DNA of 64,000 bases from Promethearchaeota archaeon (GTDB taxonomy: Archaea; Asgardarchaeota; Lokiarchaeia; Sigyniarchaeales; SOKP01). Each line of letters starts with the position of its first letter. The stretch's first letter is position 1. Shown in pieces: positions 1 to 9,084 of this stretch. A program made the translations under genes and the position numbers. The DNA lies in NCBI GenBank assembly GCA_048940445.1, contig JBHLON010000015.1:9837-73836 (forward strand). Reading direction: 5' to 3'. Below the pieces are notes generated by a model. That model saw only the letters and a program-made list of their open reading frames with translations, made no database searches and had not been told where the DNA came from.

Positions 1-1
1 T

Positions 2-226
2 ACTGAAGATTTAGTTAGTTCAATTAATAAACTGCATGAAAAAATTCAATTTAATTTAGAACAATTTAAAATTAAGCGAGACGAAGTTGAGAGACTTTCA
101 GATGTGGACATTGAATCCATGTCGAGCGAATTTAAAAAAGTATTAGGTTTATTGGAGTTACAAATTAAAGAATACCAACTTAAAAGACTTGCCGATGAAT
201 ACGTTCATCAGCATAGAATTCTTTAA
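2..226 (+). CDS. 3' end of a helical/coiled-coil hypothetical protein (truncated by window start)
   Basis: Open frame 2 reads TEDLVSSINKLHEKIQFNLEQF...LADEYVHQHRIL to TAA at 224-226, 30 nt before the actin-related gene; absent from the ORF track. Confidence 0.75.
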   Translation, partial: TEDLVSSINKLHEKIQFNLEQFKIKRDEVERLSDVDIESMSSEFKKVLGLLELQIKEYQLKRLADEYVHQHRIL

Positions 227-256
227 TTTTGGAATTAATATGTAATAAGATTATTT

Positions 257-1399
257 ATGTCATCGAAATTAAGAGACCAAACTGCTCCTTTAATAATTGA
301 CATTGGGACTTCAAATTCCAGAATAGGATGGGCGGGTGATGACTTTCCAGATATTGTTGCTCCAAGTGTATATGTTGACGTTTCTGATTATTTATTCACA
401 TCTGATGTTATTGAAGGACTAGAAGAATTGTTTTTAAAGAAGGAACAGATCTCTCATTTAGTTGGACATCAAGCATTAAAATATCAAAATATTCTAAAAG
501 TTCATGAATTTAAAAAAGAAAATAATTTTAACATTCTTCTTAAATTTTTTTTGTATTATTACAAACAGTTAAAAATTGATGATGAATATCAATTTAAACA
601 ACCTTTAGTTATCTTATCTCCGTTTTTCATATCAGATTTGGAGAAATCAAAATTACAAGATCTGTTTTTTAATTCCTTAAAATTTCCCTCAATTCTTTTC
701 TTAAATGAAAGTCAAGCTATCCTTTCCACACTTCAAAAAGATAGCGGTGTTATAGTGAGTATGGGTGAATCCCATACTTATATATCTACAATTTTTCATG
801 GTTTTACAAATATAATGGCTAAAGACGTTTTTCCAATTGCGGGTAAAGATTTAACAAATTATTTCTTGAATTTGATTTTAACCCGCATTAGTACATCGAA
901 AAATATTTATATAGATAAACCGATTGCAAAAGAAATTAAGGAAAAGCTATCATTATGTGTTTTAAATCCTCAAGAGGAACAAAAAAGAGTGAAAAGTGGT
1001 TTTACAAAATATGATAGAGTGATCGATCTTCCTGATGGATCTAACTTAAAAATAAATTTAGAACGTTTCTTACTATCTGAACCCTTATTTAATCCAAAAT
1101 TAGCTCATATCGATTATATTGATCTTGGGGAAGCAATTTCAAAAGTAATTAAAACATGGGAAAGAGAAAATTGGGAAGAATTGTTAACTAATATTATATT
1201 ATCGGGTGGAGGGAGTTTAATTACGGGATTAGATCAAAGAATTCGAATGGAATTACAAAAGCACTTTTCCGAAAAATTAAATGATAAAATTAAGGTTATA
1301 GCTGCTTCTGGTAGAGAGAATATGGGTTGGATAGGTGCTTCTATCCTATATACAAAAGGAAAGCTGGATAAAGGCTGGATTGATAACCCTGACTTTTAA
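257..1399 (+). CDS. Actin-related protein (divergent Asgard Arp)
   Basis: IIDIGTSNSRIGWAGDDFP (actin DNGSG..KAGFAGDDAP), AGKDLTNYF, AKEIKEKL, LPDG, ERFLLSEPLFNP, NIILSGGGS, WIGASIL. Confidence 0.93.
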   Translation: MSSKLRDQTAPLIIDIGTSNSRIGWAGDDFPDIVAPSVYVDVSDYLFTSDVIEGLEELFLKKEQISHLVGHQALKYQNILKVHEFKKENNFNILLKFFLYYYKQLKIDDEYQFKQPLVILSPFFISDLEKSKLQDLFFNSLKFPSILFLNESQAILSTLQKDSGVIVSMGESHTYISTIFHGFTNIMAKDVFPIAGKDLTNYFLNLILTRISTSKNIYIDKPIAKEIKEKLSLCVLNPQEEQKRVKSGFTKYDRVIDLPDGSNLKINLERFLLSEPLFNPKLAHIDYIDLGEAISKVIKTWERENWEELLTNIILSGGGSLITGLDQRIRMELQKHFSEKLNDKIKVIAASGRENMGWIGASILYTKGKLDKGWIDNPDF

Positions 1400-1425
1400 C
1401 CTAAAATTATAGTGAGTACATAATT

Positions 1426-4002
1426 ATGAACGCAAACTTAAGTAAAAAAAGCAATTTTTTAGAGGATTTCCAACAGAAAGTAATACAAGGTAGACGTTTA
1501 TTACAATCAGGAAACCATAGGTGGGCAGATAGATTATTAACTGATCTTTATTTTGAGATTGAAAAAAATGATTGGTTGGATATTCAGAAAAAACATCAAT
1601 TGATGATGATCATCTCAAATTCTTGGTGGATGTACATTAATTCCCTGATTCAAAGAAAAGAAGGAAAAATTGATTTTGATATAATTAAATATATTGATGC
1701 GTATAAACGATTCTTTTCATTTTTATCAAAGATTGATGATTTTTATCTTTTTAATAACTTTGGAACTATGCTTCTTAAATCATTTATTAACTTAAAAGAA
1801 TTATCCCAACAAGGGATTACTAAATATATAAATTCGTTTAGTGCAAAAGTTATAGAAAAGGAAGAATTTCAAAAGTTAATTGAATTGCAGATTTTGCTAA
1901 TGTATTTGAGAAAATCTGTTCTACCTCAAGAATTTTTTCATTATGCCACAGAAATATTAGGAAGAACTCTTTTTAAACTAGAACCGAATAAGAGAGCATT
2001 ATTCTTATTTATTTTTTTAGAAAATGTAAATTATAAATATAATCTTTTGGAAGATTCATCAGAATTCGTCCAAATCATAACTAAAATTTTAGCCAATCGT
2101 CTCCCAGGATACTTAAAGGATGAATTCAGTAAATTAAGCAGAATTTCGATAAACGAAAGAAATTTTGAAGAGATTTTAGTAGATCTTGAGGATTTAATTT
2201 TTTATTTGAATAATATTGGAGAATTTTCATGGATAATGATCATAATTAAAAATCTCTTCGAAAAAGTACAGAAATTTCAATCTTTTGTTGATGCAATTTC
2301 TTATATAAGAAAATTTATAGATTTTGCCATTACACGTAATAGGTTTGAGATAGCATTCGAAATTTATGACTTTCTTGAAGATTTATTTATGACACAAACT
2401 GATTTAGGATACGATAAGGTCTTAATTGAATTATGGGTTGAAGCTTGTAAGAAATTCGTTGATATGAAGGAAAAAAGATATCTCTTACAGGCTCTAGAAA
2501 AACTAAACACTCATTTAAAAATACCTCAAACTAACTCTCAATTACTTCATTATTTTTTAACTTGCAATTATCTATGGCAATTTAATTCGATATTTTTTTC
2601 ATTAGAATCTAAGGATTTTTGGCGTATGATGTTCTATCGTGCCTTATTTGAAGAAAAAGATTATGATCTTGCTCGTAAGATTATTGAATATTTAGATAAA
2701 AATATCAGATCTGTTATTTTAGATCCTGCTATTTTATATAATGAAACTGAATCATTACAACAAAATATGTATACATTTGAAGAAAAATCCTTCCATTTTG
2801 AATTAGAACAATTCTTTATAAAGCAAATAATTTTTCGAATTAATAGAGACGGTTTAATATCTTATAGAATGATGTCAGAAGATGGTAAAGTCATCGATGG
2901 AAGAGTTTTAAATGAATATTGGAATGATGCACAAATTAATGAAATTTATAATGATATCTTTTCTGATAATAGAGATAAGAAATATGATTTCGATCTCATG
3001 GAATTTGGTAAATTACTATATGTTTTTCTCCCTAAACCGATAAGAAAACTTTTAAGACGATTTGAAATTAAAACTTTAACATTTGTACCAGAAATCTATT
3101 TTATACTCGATCAAATGACGATTCCTTTTGAATTAATTTATGATAATAATTTCTTTTTATTGAAATATTCAATAGGATATATAATCGGTGAAACACCTTT
3201 AGGAGGAGTCAAATTTGAGAAGGATATAAAAGAAGAAATTACTAATAGTTTACAAAAATATCATGTATTATTAATTGACTCTGTAAATTCTCTCGGACCA
3301 TTCAGGTGGAACGAAACTACGAAGAGTAAAGAATTAATTTTTCCATTTGCCTCTGGTTCTAACGAGATAAATTTTATTACCGAATTTTTTAATAAAAGAA
3401 ATGAAGTTGAAAGTATCACAATATTAACAGGAATTAATTCTACAAAAGAAGCTATATTATCAAATGTAACAAAGAGTCCAAATCATGTTATTCATTTTGT
3501 TGGAAATCTTTTTTACTCACATTGGAATCCAAATGATAGTTTTTTCATCACAAATGATAATCAAATAATTACGATAAAGGAAATTCTTTATTCGATAAGA
3601 AGAAATTCTTCAAGCATTAAACCATTCTTATTTTTCAATACGCAAGTTTTTGATATTAATGGAAAAAAGATTAAGAATGCCCCCAACAGTTTAGGAGATG
3701 TTGCGAAACAGTTTGATTATGAAGAAATTACTGGTATTGTGACTCGAAATTATCCTATATTTGATGATGAGACAAAAGAAATTAACGCTAATTTTTATAT
3801 TAACTTATTTAGCAAAAACAATCAAGGGATATCACTTTTAAAAGCACGCCAAATTTGTATGTCTAATAGAGTAACTAAACTTGTAGAAAGCAAAGTTAAA
3901 GATTTAAGTGATACAAAAGGAAGTATGAGTATTGATTTGCAAAGCTCTTTAGCTATTTCAAGTTACATGCTTTTCGGAAAACCTTGGAAAAAGTTAAGTT
4001 AA
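1426..4002 (+). CDS. Alpha-helical solenoid plus C-terminal CHAT (caspase-like) domain, probably inactive
   Basis: CHAT-like motifs FGKLLY..LP, IPFELIYD, HVIHFVGN (cf. lHFaGHG), FFNTQ (cf. fLNAC), SLLKARQ, YMLFGKP (cf. fvlyGDP). Confidence 0.7.
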   Translation: MNANLSKKSNFLEDFQQKVIQGRRLLQSGNHRWADRLLTDLYFEIEKNDWLDIQKKHQLMMIISNSWWMYINSLIQRKEGKIDFDIIKYIDAYKRFFSFLSKIDDFYLFNNFGTMLLKSFINLKELSQQGITKYINSFSAKVIEKEEFQKLIELQILLMYLRKSVLPQEFFHYATEILGRTLFKLEPNKRALFLFIFLENVNYKYNLLEDSSEFVQIITKILANRLPGYLKDEFSKLSRISINERNFEEILVDLEDLIFYLNNIGEFSWIMIIIKNLFEKVQKFQSFVDAISYIRKFIDFAITRNRFEIAFEIYDFLEDLFMTQTDLGYDKVLIELWVEACKKFVDMKEKRYLLQALEKLNTHLKIPQTNSQLLHYFLTCNYLWQFNSIFFSLESKDFWRMMFYRALFEEKDYDLARKIIEYLDKNIRSVILDPAILYNETESLQQNMYTFEEKSFHFELEQFFIKQIIFRINRDGLISYRMMSEDGKVIDGRVLNEYWNDAQINEIYNDIFSDNRDKKYDFDLMEFGKLLYVFLPKPIRKLLRRFEIKTLTFVPEIYFILDQMTIPFELIYDNNFFLLKYSIGYIIGETPLGGVKFEKDIKEEITNSLQKYHVLLIDSVNSLGPFRWNETTKSKELIFPFASGSNEINFITEFFNKRNEVESITILTGINSTKEAILSNVTKSPNHVIHFVGNLFYSHWNPNDSFFITNDNQIITIKEILYSIRRNSSSIKPFLFFNTQVFDINGKKIKNAPNSLGDVAKQFDYEEITGIVTRNYPIFDDETKEINANFYINLFSKNNQGISLLKARQICMSNRVTKLVESKVKDLSDTKGSMSIDLQSSLAISSYMLFGKPWKKLS

Positions 4003-4084
4003 AGCTAAATTTCTTTTAACAAATATTTATAAAAATTTGGTATTTTAGATAGTATATAAAAATTAATTTAATTAAGATTTAGTT

Positions 4085-4624
4085 TTGTCAGAAAATAGAC
4101 TTATTGAGCTTCGGATTGAAAACCAGAACCTTAAGAGACAAGTACAAGATTTAGAAAGTAAAGTTTTAACCCTAGTAGGGATGGTGAATTTAGTTTCTTC
4201 AGGTGGCCCAGATGTGAAATATCGATTAAATGATGAATTGATTGAATTTTTTAATTCAACAAATACACAGTTGAATATAGTATCTCCAAAAGTGGATAAT
4301 TTTTACGCTATAGAGTTAAAAAGATTAGCAAAAAGGGAAATTCCAATTTTAATGATTACAAATGATAGAGGGGGGATTCCAAAAGGTTATCAAGAAGTTT
4401 ACGATGATCTAAAACAAACAGAGGGAATAAATATAATAAATAATCCTAATGTAAGATACTTATTGGTATTTAATTCTGAAAAAGCTATGTATTCGGGGGG
4501 ATCATTAGATAAGGATGAATTAGAAAAATCCGTATTAATTGTAACCACCGTGAAAGAAACAACAAAATTAAGAAGCATTGCACAGATTTTTAGTATGATG
4601 CTTCCAACTTTTATGAGAAAATAA
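4085..4624 (+). CDS. Coiled coil plus PLD-fold domain lacking the HKD motif
   Basis: N-terminal heptads ENQNLKRQVQDLESKV; LNIVSP, ILMITN, and VRYLLVFNSEKAMYSGGSL align with PLD HxKxxxxD...GSxNL. Confidence 0.6.
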   Translation: MSENRLIELRIENQNLKRQVQDLESKVLTLVGMVNLVSSGGPDVKYRLNDELIEFFNSTNTQLNIVSPKVDNFYAIELKRLAKREIPILMITNDRGGIPKGYQEVYDDLKQTEGINIINNPNVRYLLVFNSEKAMYSGGSLDKDELEKSVLIVTTVKETTKLRSIAQIFSMMLPTFMRK

Positions 4625-4649
4625 TCTAGAGTTAAAGGCTTAAGTTAAG

Positions 4650-4781
4650 ATGATTCAGAATTTAGATAAAGAGGAAGAAAATAATGAGCATTTTAATGAA
4701 ACAGAATTAAAAATTAGCTCTGAGGAAAATTTTGACTGGGATTGGATATTTGATAAAGGATGGTTGAGAATAAAAAAGTAA
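4650..4781 (+). CDS. Candidate 43-aa acidic, Trp-rich micro-protein
   Basis: ATG 4650 to TAA 4779-4781: MIQNLDKEEENNEHFNETELKISSEENFDWDWIFDKGWLRIKK; fills the gap between two + strand genes. Confidence 0.4.
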   Translation: MIQNLDKEEENNEHFNETELKISSEENFDWDWIFDKGWLRIKK

Positions 4782-6922
4782 TAAATTCTGATTTCATAGT
4801 TAAATATTTTGGGCTAAACTCCCAAATCTATAAAGAAGGTGTTAAAAATCTAAAAAAGATTACTAAAGAGTCCAATTTGCAAGAAAGGTTCAGGAGTCTC
4901 AAAAATCTTTATGGCAAAATATACAGCATTGAACCTACTCAAGATTTACTTATTAAGTATTCTTATTATATCCAAGTCCTAAGATTAATCTTAATTAAAA
5001 AATTAAGTAGTATAAGAGGAATAGACTTTAAAAAACTTTATTATTCTGATTTAGATACTGATTTCAATGAATTTAAGGAATTTTATGTTGATTTTTTAGA
5101 GAAATCTACATTAGAAAAAATGTTTGTATTATTAGAAAATGTTAATTTTTCAAATGAAGATTTGTTTCATGAGCTTTATCAAGAAATATTTTTTTCAGCA
5201 ACTAGACACCAATTAGGAGAGTTCTACACTTGTAAGAATCTAGTAAAGATGATGGTTGATAACTTTTATGAAATAAGGAAAAAAGTTTTAGATCCTGCTT
5301 GTGGTTCAGGCACATTTTTAGTCGAAATACTATTAAAAATAATAAGTTCTGAAGAAACTAAAGATGTAAGTAAAATTGATGCAATTAATAATGTTTATGG
5401 GTTTGATGTCAATCCAATAGCAGTTTTAACTGCTAAAGTTAACCTTAAAATTATTATTCTTGATTATTTTAGACTTGACGTACATAAACTACAAGGACCT
5501 ATAATATATTTCAAAGATGCTCTTTTTTTTAGTAAAGAAGAAAAACTGAATCTGGAAAATGCATTTGATTTAATAATAGGTAACCCTCCATGGCTTACAT
5601 ATAAAGATATTTACAATAAGGATTATCAACAAAAAATAAGAGATTTAGCTGATACTTTAGATATTAAACCTCCAAGCCAATATATCACTCATATTGAATT
5701 AGCTGCGATATTCTTCTATGCAATTCCAATAAAATATTTAAGAGACTACGGTAAAATATTCTTTGTAATTACTAAAAGTGTGCTAAATGGAGATCATTGC
5801 TATAAATTTAGAAAATTTTCAATTTTTGATAATCTAGAGATTTGGGATTTCCCCAAGAATTATTTCTTTAATATTGATCACATCTGCCTCAAGGCAAGAT
5901 ATATTGGGAAAAATTATAAAAAAACCTTAGAAGAGAAATTTCCGATCACTGCTAAAATCTATAATGATAATTTAAAACTCTTAGAAACAACCAGATACGA
6001 TAGTATTGGATTAGAAAAAGACGGTGCAAAAATAATACTTCCTAAAACAGAGCGAGATGCCCTAAATAAACTATCAATCAGCAATTACAAGAAATTATTC
6101 TTCCAAGGAGCTACTTTAGTTCCGAGAAGTCTTGTTTTCTTTAAAATTAATAGCGAGAAAGATAAATTTCTGCAAATATCTTCAGATCCGGATATCTTAT
6201 CACGCGCTAAGAAAAATTGGATTTTCAAATTTGAGAATAGAGAAATAGAAAAAAATTTTGCTTTTCAGACGTTTCTTAATAAAGATCTAATTCCTTTTTA
6301 TATAAAGAAGCTTCGCAATATATTTTTACCTATTAATGAAAATTTTGAATTCAATATGTTAAATTTAGAGAAATTTCCAAAAGCATATGAATTTTACAAT
6401 GAATTAAATAAAATCTATCAGAGCAAAAAGAAAGCTACGAGTAAAATTAAGACTTTATTTTCAAACCTTAATTATTGGAATAAGCTTTCGAAGCAATCAA
6501 ATAATAAACGTTTTATTGTGATATATAATGCAAGTGGATCGATGATTAAATCTGCAGTACTTGATAATCAAGAAAAAAATGCATTCATCGGGTCAGAAAA
6601 CTACTATTTTTCCACAGACTTATCTAATGAAGCATATTTTCTCTCATCAATTCTTAATTCTAATATACTCAGTAAAAACATAAAAATAATTAAATCTAGC
6701 AGACATATTCATAAAAGACCTTTTTCGTTTCCAATACCAATTTATAATAATGATAATCTTCTCCATCGTAATTTAGCTAATAAGGGAAAAAAATATGAAT
6801 CTGTTGTTCAAGATCTTTTTTTTAATAATCCTAAGATTAATGCATCAAAAGTCAGGATCTTCATTAACAGGAAACTTCAAAAACTTGACACACTCACAAA
6901 ACAAGTAGTATTTGGATTATGA
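4760..6922 (+). CDS. N6-adenine DNA methyltransferase (gamma class, Eco57I/TaqI-like)
   Basis: LGEFYT, VLDPACGSGTFL, GFDVNP, IIGNPPW; C-terminal target-recognition region. Confidence 0.88.
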   Translation: MVENKKVINSDFIVKYFGLNSQIYKEGVKNLKKITKESNLQERFRSLKNLYGKIYSIEPTQDLLIKYSYYIQVLRLILIKKLSSIRGIDFKKLYYSDLDTDFNEFKEFYVDFLEKSTLEKMFVLLENVNFSNEDLFHELYQEIFFSATRHQLGEFYTCKNLVKMMVDNFYEIRKKVLDPACGSGTFLVEILLKIISSEETKDVSKIDAINNVYGFDVNPIAVLTAKVNLKIIILDYFRLDVHKLQGPIIYFKDALFFSKEEKLNLENAFDLIIGNPPWLTYKDIYNKDYQQKIRDLADTLDIKPPSQYITHIELAAIFFYAIPIKYLRDYGKIFFVITKSVLNGDHCYKFRKFSIFDNLEIWDFPKNYFFNIDHICLKARYIGKNYKKTLEEKFPITAKIYNDNLKLLETTRYDSIGLEKDGAKIILPKTERDALNKLSISNYKKLFFQGATLVPRSLVFFKINSEKDKFLQISSDPDILSRAKKNWIFKFENREIEKNFAFQTFLNKDLIPFYIKKLRNIFLPINENFEFNMLNLEKFPKAYEFYNELNKIYQSKKKATSKIKTLFSNLNYWNKLSKQSNNKRFIVIYNASGSMIKSAVLDNQEKNAFIGSENYYFSTDLSNEAYFLSSILNSNILSKNIKIIKSSRHIHKRPFSFPIPIYNNDNLLHRNLANKGKKYESVVQDLFFNNPKINASKVRIFINRKLQKLDTLTKQVVFGL

Positions 6923-7081: not shown

Positions 7082-8230
7082 TTGAGTTTCAAAGAATTAG
7101 GCATTAGTGAATTTTTAGTTAATGCTTTGCAAAAATTAGAGATTAATCGACCAACTCCAGTGCAAAAAACTGCTATTCCTGTAATATTAAATGGTCAACA
7201 TATAATGGTTCAAGCTAAGACAGGAAGTGGGAAAACATTAGCCTTCCTATTACCTATTATTGAAAGATTAAGTGGCAAATCTAATGAGGTTTTAATTTTA
7301 GAGCCTACTAGAGAGCTTGCAAAGCAAGTAGATCAAGTATTAAAGGAATTAGGAAATCATACTATTAAATCGACAACTATCTATGGAGGAGTATCAATAG
7401 ATCGCCAGATTAATGATCTAGAGAATGGAGTTAACTTTATTTGTGGAACCCCGGGAAGACTTATTGATATTTATAAAAGAAAGAAATTAGATTTTAAAAA
7501 TATAAAGTTTGTCGTTATTGATGAGGCAGATCGTTTATTTGACATGGGATTTGCCCCTGATGTCAACTATATTTTAAGTAAAATTAAAACAAAATATCAA
7601 TTTATGCTCTTTTCAGCAACACTTTATTCTGAGATTAGAAAATTAGTGAAAAAGCATTCTAAAAATGATTTTAAATTCATCAATCTGAGTAAAGATGATT
7701 TAACAGTAGGTAATACCAAACAATATTATTATTTAATAGATAGATTCGAACAGAAATTTGGCACATTTCTAAAGATTTTAAAATTTGAGAATCCTAAACA
7801 TACTTTAGTATTTGTAAATACTAAAAAAACAGCTTCATGGTTGGTAAGCAAGTTAAAATCAAGAAAAGATTTTAATTTTCAAGTAGATATGATTTCTGGG
7901 AGATTAACACAACATATGCGTGAAAAAATTTTAAAATCTTTTAGAGAACATAGAATCAATATGTTAATTGCCACAGATGTCGCTGCTAGAGGTTTGGATA
8001 TTGAAGATATTACTCATATAGTTAACTATGATGTCCCGAAGTATCCTGATGTATATATACATCGGATTGGAAGAACTTCAAGAATGAATAAACGTGGCAC
8101 GGCTATTACATTATGTTTGGCAGATGAATATGAGTATCTTTGTCATATTGAAGGTTTAATCAATAAAGAAATCCAGCAAAAAACCATAGAAAAGAAAGAT
8201 ACTAGGCGATTTCATAATCCTTTCTATTAA
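7082..8230 (+). CDS. DEAD-box RNA helicase
   Basis: AKTGSGKT, PTRELA, TPGRL, DEAD, SAT, ARGLD, HRIGRTSR; TTG start. Confidence 0.95.
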   Translation: MSFKELGISEFLVNALQKLEINRPTPVQKTAIPVILNGQHIMVQAKTGSGKTLAFLLPIIERLSGKSNEVLILEPTRELAKQVDQVLKELGNHTIKSTTIYGGVSIDRQINDLENGVNFICGTPGRLIDIYKRKKLDFKNIKFVVIDEADRLFDMGFAPDVNYILSKIKTKYQFMLFSATLYSEIRKLVKKHSKNDFKFINLSKDDLTVGNTKQYYYLIDRFEQKFGTFLKILKFENPKHTLVFVNTKKTASWLVSKLKSRKDFNFQVDMISGRLTQHMREKILKSFREHRINMLIATDVAARGLDIEDITHIVNYDVPKYPDVYIHRIGRTSRMNKRGTAITLCLADEYEYLCHIEGLINKEIQQKTIEKKDTRRFHNPFY

Positions 8231-9084
8231 GCATTAACCTGCTTTTCAGAAAATACTCTCTCTAAAAATTTATGGAATTCTTTAGAGTTTTTTTCTAAGT
8301 CTTGTATAGCTTTAGTAAAATGATTTTTTATGAACTCTTTAATGAGTTTGTTTTTCAGAATTACTAGATTGTTTATTGTTTTAAATTCTTTCGCTAAATG
8401 AACGTTAAAAGGTGCTTCTTTTCTTCCTCTTATCTTTGGAATATAAACAATATAGCATTTAAATAAAGTGCTAATAAGATGGTTGAAATTATTATGAGGA
8501 AATTTTTTATTATACCAACTTTTTAATTCTCTTATTGGTATGGATTTATTAGATAACAGATTCAGCGTTTCTATAACTTCTTGTTTTTCTAATAGTGAAG
8601 ATATATTATACTCTTTTAGATTATTCTCGGTTTCATCTTCTATTGCTAAGTAGAATTCTTGAATCCAGTCTTTAATTAAATTAAAATTAGATTCTATTTC
8701 CCTATGAGAAGAATGGCCATCTTCTTCTGTATTTCTATAAAAACCCCTAAAAATATATTTCTTTGCTTTTAACCATTCTATAAATTCAATGCAAATTGTA
8801 AATAACGCTTTTTCAAGCTCAACGGAAACAGGCTGTTGAAATATTATTGAAATCATTAAAAACTCTTTCTTTCCACGAGCCCACTCTGAATCAATTTCAA
8901 AATAATAGTTTAATGTATAAGATGAATTGAATGAATGGGTAAAAAATCCTTCTGAAATGATTTGATCCATCAAGCTAGAGATAATTGAAGCATTTTCTTC
9001 TTTCAATTTATGCTCTGGATAAGAATAGAATACACAAGGTCCCAATTTTCGATCAAAATAGGAGATTGCAATTAAGAATTGCAT
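8227..9084 (-). CDS. Longin/uDENN-like domain protein
   Basis: SYFDRKLGPCVFYSYP and EWARGKKEFLMISII resemble NPRL2/folliculin-type longin domains; possible C-terminal winged helix. Confidence 0.6.
   Translation of the reverse strand: MQFLIAISYFDRKLGPCVFYSYPEHKLKEENASIISSLMDQIISEGFFTHSFNSSYTLNYYFEIDSEWARGKKEFLMISIIFQQPVSVELEKALFTICIEFIEWLKAKKYIFRGFYRNTEEDGHSSHREIESNFNLIKDWIQEFYLAIEDETENNLKEYNISSLLEKQEVIETLNLLSNKSIPIRELKSWYNKKFPHNNFNHLISTLFKCYIVYIPKIRGRKEAPFNVHLAKEFKTINNLVILKNKLIKEFIKNHFTKAIQDLEKNSKEFHKFLERVFSEKQVNA

Follow-up and report, generated by a model that had tools for sequence, protein, structure and literature searches.

What use does an Asgard archaeon have for an actin-related protein (Arp) whose gene is packed among those of apparently disabled enzymes? 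The question is raised by a 64,000-nucleotide stretch (the window) of a Promethearchaeota archaeon of the order Sigyniarchaeales (contig JBHLON010000015.1 of assembly GCA_048940445.1, positions 9,837 to 73,836). Here the gene for a divergent Arp is followed closely by one for an 858-residue protein that joins a solenoid to a CHAT protease fold, and this inner pair is flanked by two outer genes, encoding a coiled-coil protein of 251 residues and a protein of 179 residues that combines a coiled coil with a phospholipase D (PLD) fold. On balance, the evidence tips towards a non-catalytic heterodimer of the Arp and the pseudo-CHAT protein, which would probably serve as adaptor or regulator of an older two-gene module, the outer pair. 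The features on which the argument turns are the following (window positions):

1–226, plus strand: 3' end of the gene for the 251-residue coiled-coil protein, which starts 530 nucleotides before the window; outer module.
257–1399, plus strand: divergent Arp of 380 residues (PF00022, E=2e-48); inner module.
380–436, plus strand: Arp residues 42–60, in place of the D-loop and predicted to make the chief contact with the solenoid; Leu55 is invariant.
1426–4002, plus strand: 858-residue solenoid and pseudo-CHAT protein without the catalytic dyad; inner module.
1474–1848, plus strand: solenoid residues 17–141, the Arp-binding surface predicted by the complex model.
3505–3507, plus strand: Asn694, at the CHAT catalytic His position (alignment with intact CHAT).
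3643–3645, plus strand: Gln740, at the CHAT catalytic Cys position (same alignment).
4085–4624, plus strand: 179-residue protein, coiled coil plus a single PLD/TrmB-C-like domain without HKD motif; outer module.

An earlier note on this DNA had described five open reading frames (ORFs), these four and a micro-ORF; all lie on the plus strand with gaps of 30, 26, 82 and 25 nucleotides, exactly as it had said, and its attribution of the locus to an Asgard archaeon is supported. Ratios of nonsynonymous to synonymous substitution (dN/dS) range from 0.09 to 0.20 for all four core genes and from 0.06 to 0.17 for subregions of the CHAT gene; this purifying selection argues that the products are retained pseudo-enzymes and not decaying genes. 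The 858-residue protein matches the CHAT family (PF12770, E=2.7e-6), and its AlphaFold model (predicted local confidence, pLDDT, 85) is made up of a TPR-like solenoid (residues ~5–447), a pseudo-protease subdomain (~464–590) and a caspase-fold CHAT subdomain (~610–858). With an intact CHAT protein from another genome (G237) as register, the catalytic His position is occupied by Asn694 in 42 of 43 orthologues and the Cys position by Gln740 in 37; a Cys was never seen, and none of the 43 restores either residue. The same succession of solenoid, pseudo-protease and caspase fold is found in Csx29/TPR-CHAT (Craspase), DdvA and separase (Foldseek E down to 2e-10). The model aligns with 8d9f at VIA Z 19.0 (root-mean-square deviation, rmsd, 13.8; 350 residues aligned) and with the separase protease domain 5fby at VIA Z 15.3 (rmsd 4.0, 282 aligned); a PDB sequence search using the CHAT alignment gave no match. 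Binding of a partner protein by the solenoid is common to these proteins and, by prediction, to ours. However, the His-Cys dyad is intact in Csx29, DdvA (PMC11506125) and separase where the present family has Asn and Gln, and, unlike them, the family is linked to no CRISPR system, sigma factor or known substrate, its predicted partner being the Arp.

The Arp is a full-length member of the actin family (PF00022, 165 bits against a cut-off of 27, residues 7–376) and aligns weakly with solved actins over its whole length (best E=5e-35). It retains D11, G13, G156, K213 and the adenosine-loop glycines, and across 39 orthologues the nucleotide-binding glycines and adenosine loop (G13, G156, G182, K213, G301–302) are 87–100% conserved. 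Most or all orthologues carry changes or deletions at G15, K18 (mostly Arg), D154, G158 and H161 together with a shortened His73 sensor loop; in place of the D-loop there is a family-specific segment. The Gln137 position falls on Q153 according to HMMER and on E151 according to MAFFT, neither being conserved outside family f1, that of the window. Judged by its residues, the Arp appears degenerate rather than cleanly dead; it would probably still bind nucleotide and hydrolyse it poorly. In trees of archaeal sequences the operon Arps form a clade of their own, apart from Lokiactin (support 100/100; 97 in the Shimodaira–Hasegawa-like likelihood-ratio test of a tree with wider sampling), and its branching follows the families. 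The source genome has four actin-family genes: Lokiactin (on C72), two other Arps and the operon Arp.

Would such an Arp be bound by its neighbor? The earlier note had expected confident interfaces between subunits, and this expectation is borne out for the single pair modelled, the Arp with residues 1–620 of the solenoid-CHAT protein. The interface score ipSAE was 0.73, against 0.00 for the best of three controls; the mark used is one that 58 of 80 solved complexes attain, compared with 2 of 110 mismatched pairs; these figures apply only roughly here, our alignments being our own. Agreement of contacts between runs is 95% or better, and the partner has a pLDDT of 87 or more. The modelled interface sets solenoid residues 17–37, 86–101 and 113–141 against Arp residues 42–60, 76–80, 218 and 259–261. 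The latter align to the D-loop and to residues 61–65, ~203 and 243–245 of actin, which form its pointed-end face for lengthwise filament contacts, and the N-terminus of the solenoid is predicted to cover this end of the Arp. Conserved solenoid residues in the predicted surface are L25, N30, H31, W33, D91, Y93, F97, I131 and S137; of the 16 residues invariant in the Arp, three (L55, L80, P259) fall inside the 24-residue interface, and the invariant L25 and W33 of the solenoid also lie in the contact. We propose a stable, non-catalytic heterodimer in which the first TPR-like repeats grip the rebuilt D-loop and the remainder of the pointed-end face. We infer that the Arp would be held as a monomer, since the solenoid occupies the surface of lengthwise filament contacts; the caspase-fold end, unable to cut, might serve as a binding platform.

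If the two proteins work as a unit, their genes should be inherited and lost as one. A full-length CHAT protein was found in 117 of 134 genomes of f1, 6 of 14 of f2 (G262 was added later) and the single genome of f29; there was none in the four genomes of f30 (63–88% complete) and none outside the order (399 genomes). As the earlier note had anticipated, gene order is conserved in relatives: it is constant for the four genes across f1, f2 and f29, three families of one order, while the flanking genes differ between families. Each core gene is single-copy. CHAT has the Arp gene immediately before it in 69 of 71 loci with room and the PLD gene immediately after it in 63 of 66 (related genomes, not independent in either count), and the Arp stop and CHAT start overlap or nearly touch in distant families. 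Both cultured Lokis carry the cluster: MK-D1 (P. syntrophicum, our genome G259) as DSAG12_01478–01481 (proteins QEE15651–QEE15654), with QEE15652 as Arp and QEE15653 as CHAT protein, and Candidatus Lokiarchaeum ossiferum as NEF87_003933 to _003930. The gene numbering of the latter points to UYP47647.1 as the operon Arp, flanked by the outer-gene orthologues NEF87_003933/UYP47648 and NEF87_003930/UYP47645.

The constancy of the four genes from f29 via f2 to f1, the fixed place of the PLD gene and the single copies could be taken to point to a single pseudo-enzyme scaffold in which every one of the four products is an obligate subunit. We regard this as quite improbable in view of the genomes in which the set is broken. 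Outer-gene profiles register in 12 of 14 f2 genomes, and the outer genes are immediate neighbors of each other in genera g9 (G210, on a single contig, G094 and G089) and g10 (G162, G234). Neither an Arp orthologue nor CHAT was found in the four g9/g10 genomes searched individually; the MK-D1 CHAT query recovered the positive control, G262, and nothing in these four. In the outer-gene tree g9 falls inside the MK-D1/L. ossiferum clade (support 93–94) and g10 stands apart, which implies at least two losses of Arp plus CHAT. The PLD-fold family also occurs without any partner in other orders of the class, and the PLD gene is missing from the locus in G065. In G262 the cluster is rearranged: the Arp ends a contig, followed by a cut helical ORF, and the other part of the CHAT gene starts another contig, upstream of the 251-residue gene; the PLD gene is elsewhere, and the Arp–CHAT pair stays together. 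The single scaffold of five products proposed in the earlier note is not supported, given the same observations, namely an outer pair that persists in five genomes (two genera) in which no Arp and no CHAT was found and the state of G065 and G262, and given a micro-ORF that follows the methyltransferase downstream. In one further genome, G125 (L106:5170–5787), only the C-terminal 205 residues of the pseudo-CHAT protein lie between the outer genes; the Arp is missing, and so are ~650 residues from the CHAT N-terminus, among them the part predicted to bind the Arp (a single metagenome-assembled genome, possibly an assembly artefact).

At the other extreme, the cluster might be inherited synteny only, with products that do not cooperate; the unrelated genes for AbrB-ACT, the methyltransferase and a DEAD helicase are, after all, also syntenic within f1. 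This is hardly credible: outside f1 the flanking neighbors change and the core does not, Arp and CHAT move and disappear together, and their complex prediction passes against controls. The heterodimer would be an inner module nested in the outer one. The outer pair, a coiled-coil and a coiled-coil/PLD-fold protein, would be the older and able to work without the inner pair, and the heterodimer would most likely be its adaptor or regulator, as eukaryotic non-polymerising Arps are inside larger complexes.

A covered pointed end would leave the barbed face of the Arp free, and it is tempting to ask what binds there. Genomes without the Arp–CHAT pair retain Lokiactin. At barbed-contact positions the Arp has a within-family conservation of 0.70 and an identity to Lokiactin of 0.22; in the same comparison the figures are 0.54 for the paralogue L036 and 0.26 overall. 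The Gly-aromatic pair of the W-loop (G168/Y169; actin 168–169), L346 and W356 are retained in 87–97% of orthologues. The cleft shows the changes L349→K/Q, M355→G, I287→R and R290→W and a two-residue deletion near 143–148, and the C-terminal helices of actin are not conserved. Since the face is kept within the family and differs from that of Lokiactin, a dedicated partner is favored over templating of Lokiactin, and we propose that the barbed face most likely binds such a partner and not a Lokiactin filament.

The 251-residue protein bears on this point. Its disordered N-terminal half contains a conserved amphipathic helix and a PxL motif, and long helices follow at residues 130–210 and 214–250. 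The helix-linker-PxL(K) arrangement looks WH2-like by eye and has no PF02205 or PDB WH2 match, such a short motif being near the limit of these searches. Arp2/3 and dynactin Arp11 offer a comparison for the idea that the Arp–CHAT pair is a pointed-end cap or nucleator of Lokiactin, whose free barbed face would seat the first Lokiactin subunit while the coiled-coil protein delivers monomers. An interface confined to the pointed end, the retained W-loop pair, L346 and W356 and the conservation of helix-linker-PxL(K) all fit this idea, as does the presence of WH2-like motifs in Asgard gelsolins (PMC9433394). However, most of the barbed cleft is remodelled, the motif finds no match in the WH2 profile, helix and PxL persist in genomes without the Arp, and the Lokis that lack the pair keep their Lokiactin, all of which makes the idea rather unlikely. 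Its fuller version, a capping and nucleating machine independent of Arp2/3 in which the pseudo-protease caps the Arp, the barbed face seeds or anchors Lokiactin and the WH2-like protein supplies monomers, strikes us as a shade less probable still. The 251-residue protein otherwise constitutes a closed family: a profile search among 1.84 billion representatives found no remote homologue, Foldseek returned nothing, and structure comparison gave only generic coiled coils (Z up to 7.4). Weak Pfam matches (PBC, Forkhead) and a UniRef label, 'FlaD/E', were set aside as uncorroborated.

The heterodimer remains our preferred reading, and several points weigh against it. The Arp–solenoid interface expresses the confidence of a model and is not a measurement; its conservation is only slightly above that of the rest of the proteins (p=0.04–0.10), and seven of 44 neighbors picked blindly also passed the ipSAE test. 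Adjacent genes can vanish in one deletion regardless of function, and the absences themselves carry some risk because a search with the A2 profile missed the CHAT protein of G262. In G357 some 3.8 kb separate Arp and CHAT. The mapping of the barbed face around actin 137–148 depends on the alignment. Lastly, any physical tie of the outer proteins to the Arp–CHAT pair is conjectural.

Could the cluster be a defense or stress-signalling system? In the 179-residue protein the PLD fold is undetected in the window sequence alone; PLDc_2 matches 33 of 41 orthologues (best 3e-6), and Atlas neighbors of the protein are PLDc_2. The catalytic His position is Asn122 in 36 of the 41 and never His, the Asp position is Phe/Trp129, the HKD Lys is kept as K/R, and the Asn position of GSxN is Ser, Pro or Ala. 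The earlier note had thought each of the three folds to lack key catalytic residues; this is right for CHAT and PLD, in the orthologues likewise, and needs qualifying for the Arp, which is degenerate and keeps its nucleotide glycines. The cluster is not an active CHAT or PLD system. TrmB and FilR1-middle match a few members of the 179-residue family and NucT matches at E=0.008. Compared with TrmB, PLDc_2 and NucT proteins, it has no HKD motif and no helix-turn-helix and instead a coiled coil and an invariant C-terminal motif; Pfam matched the N-terminal 40 residues to coiled-coil and zipper families only. An HKD-less PLD fold is not unusual in archaea; UniRef already labels the proteins of this family 'TrmB C-terminal domain'. 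The last six residues are almost invariant and resemble the FtsZ C-terminal peptide, which is a lead at most: the proteome contains the motif five times and shuffled versions of it 3.2±1.8 times, showing no enrichment.

A gene for an AbrB/MazE-ACT protein (L001:8874–9275), a possible ligand-responsive regulator, lies 31 nucleotides upstream of the 251-residue gene; it heads the cluster in f1, f29 and g10 and not in g9, MK-D1 or L. ossiferum. In a defense system a TPR-CHAT sensor would have been converted to a decoy or inhibitor; nucleotide would be sensed by the Arp and ligands bound by the PLD-fold protein as effector, with AbrB-ACT in control and a methyltransferase gene alongside. TrmB-C-like domains do bind effectors, the closest folds of the CHAT protein are Csx29, DdvA and SAVED-CHAT, and the position of AbrB-ACT in three lineages would suit such control. 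We nonetheless consider this very unlikely: single copies, a fixed position, presence in most f1 genomes and a taxonomy-like tree are the behavior of core genes, unlike that of patchy defense islands; the conserved unit has no active effector; and outside f1 the locus has no methyltransferase gene.

Known systems offer two points of comparison for the Arp–pseudo-CHAT heterodimer. In the crenactin "arcade" cluster, likewise an archaeal actin-family gene grouped with small partner proteins of which one binds it, crenactin polymerises and arcadin-2 binds its barbed-end groove (PMC5173319). In contrast, the present Arp is degenerate and is predicted to be bound at its pointed end by a large solenoid. 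General Pfam scans and PDB hits, which involved no direct comparison with arcadin profiles, contained no arcadin families. The non-polymerising Arps of eukaryotes (dynactin Arp11, Arp2/3, nuclear Arp4–9) have altered D-loops and ATPase loops and are held by dedicated subunits; the operon Arp is divergent in the same way, with D-loop and ATPase loops altered. No cluster partner resembled dynactin, ARPC or HSA proteins in the searches we ran. Restriction to one Loki order and a long stem of its own argue that the system is probably a parallel invention and not the ancestor of eukaryotic Arps. It operates, in our reading, like the complex-bound eukaryotic Arps and is arranged like the arcade, and is a member of neither.

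The Arp itself is already known. In L. ossiferum three non-Lokiactin ARPs have been recorded and their transcripts measured; one of these, UYP47647.1, the orthologue of the operon Arp, is transcribed below the level of Lokiactin and clusters with other ARPs, no neighbors, partners or function being given (PMC9834061). In the literature we searched, no paper describes the cluster or its predicted partner, and for Asgard Arps other than Lokiactin it offers counts and phylogenies, with no partner described. This locus offers a named partner, an interface predicted at the level of residues and natural knock-outs in the genera without the pair, and the presence of the cluster in both cultured Lokis makes direct testing possible. 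If the proposal is true, a dedicated complex holding an Arp exists in an archaeon as in eukaryotes, and a fold of the separase/Csx29 type has been reused as a non-cutting scaffold. Restriction to a single order limits what can be concluded about the eukaryotic ancestor.

Other Arps came to light in the course of this survey. In neighboring orders (L131:67–2628, L130:1480–3813, L129:1171–2622, L133:442–2154 and L132) Arps are fused to a domain weakly resembling PCI/winged-helix domains, and some also carry a lengthy disordered tail in which short motifs recur; these Arps branch near the operon Arp with low support. They were considered as Rosetta-stone fusions and rejected, the long Arps having no solenoid and no partner genes nearby. 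G094 has an extra actin-family gene (L117:6747–7838), extremely divergent (branch length 3.3) and set in a tight co-oriented gene string, which falls outside the operon Arp clade. The PLD-fold gene is followed in most f2 loci, whether or not these contain the Arp pair, by an ORF of ~380–410 residues (for example L084:12436–13653; similarly sized in L083, L085, L087 and L091–L093). This may represent an additional component of the outer module in f2; the three ORFs scanned had no Pfam match.

Downstream of the core lie two more features:

4650–4781, plus strand: micro-ORF of 43 residues, overlapping the methyltransferase start by 22 nucleotides.
4760–6922, plus strand: N6-adenine-type DNA methyltransferase with intact-looking motifs, the downstream neighbor in f1 only.

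Only the last ~16 codons of the micro-ORF are conserved, in some f1 genera and about one-third of the closest loci, and dN/dS for the whole ORF is 0.75–1.1, a noisy figure for so short a sequence. Because it is kept in G065, where the locus has no PLD gene, and always overlaps the methyltransferase start, it belongs with the methyltransferase and not with the Arp module. At window positions 4753–4781 the methyltransferase is read in the -1 frame with respect to the micro-ORF, whose stop codon is closely preceded by an A-AAA-AAG heptamer in most loci with a micro-ORF, L024 and L041 excepted. Slippage into the -1 frame could extend the methyltransferase at its N-terminus; translational coupling at the overlap is the simpler reading.

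The only RNA run containing the MK-D1 locus yields genome-scale contigs on assembly (4.33 Mb), with flat depth over 18 kb, and cannot reveal transcripts. Promoter-like sites in the locus were at chance level in a scan for promoters and terminators that used a bacterial consensus and is uninformative. Further upstream (L001:1–8298), a duplicated block of B12-radical SAM, SCP2 and U32-family genes surrounds an aromatic prenyltransferase (PTase_Orf2, E=2e-51), which suggests a lipid or quinone modification cluster. On the minus strand, window positions 8227–9084 encode a 285-residue protein with faint DUF4460 and folliculin matches only (E 0.02–0.9); it may have a longin-type N-terminal domain.

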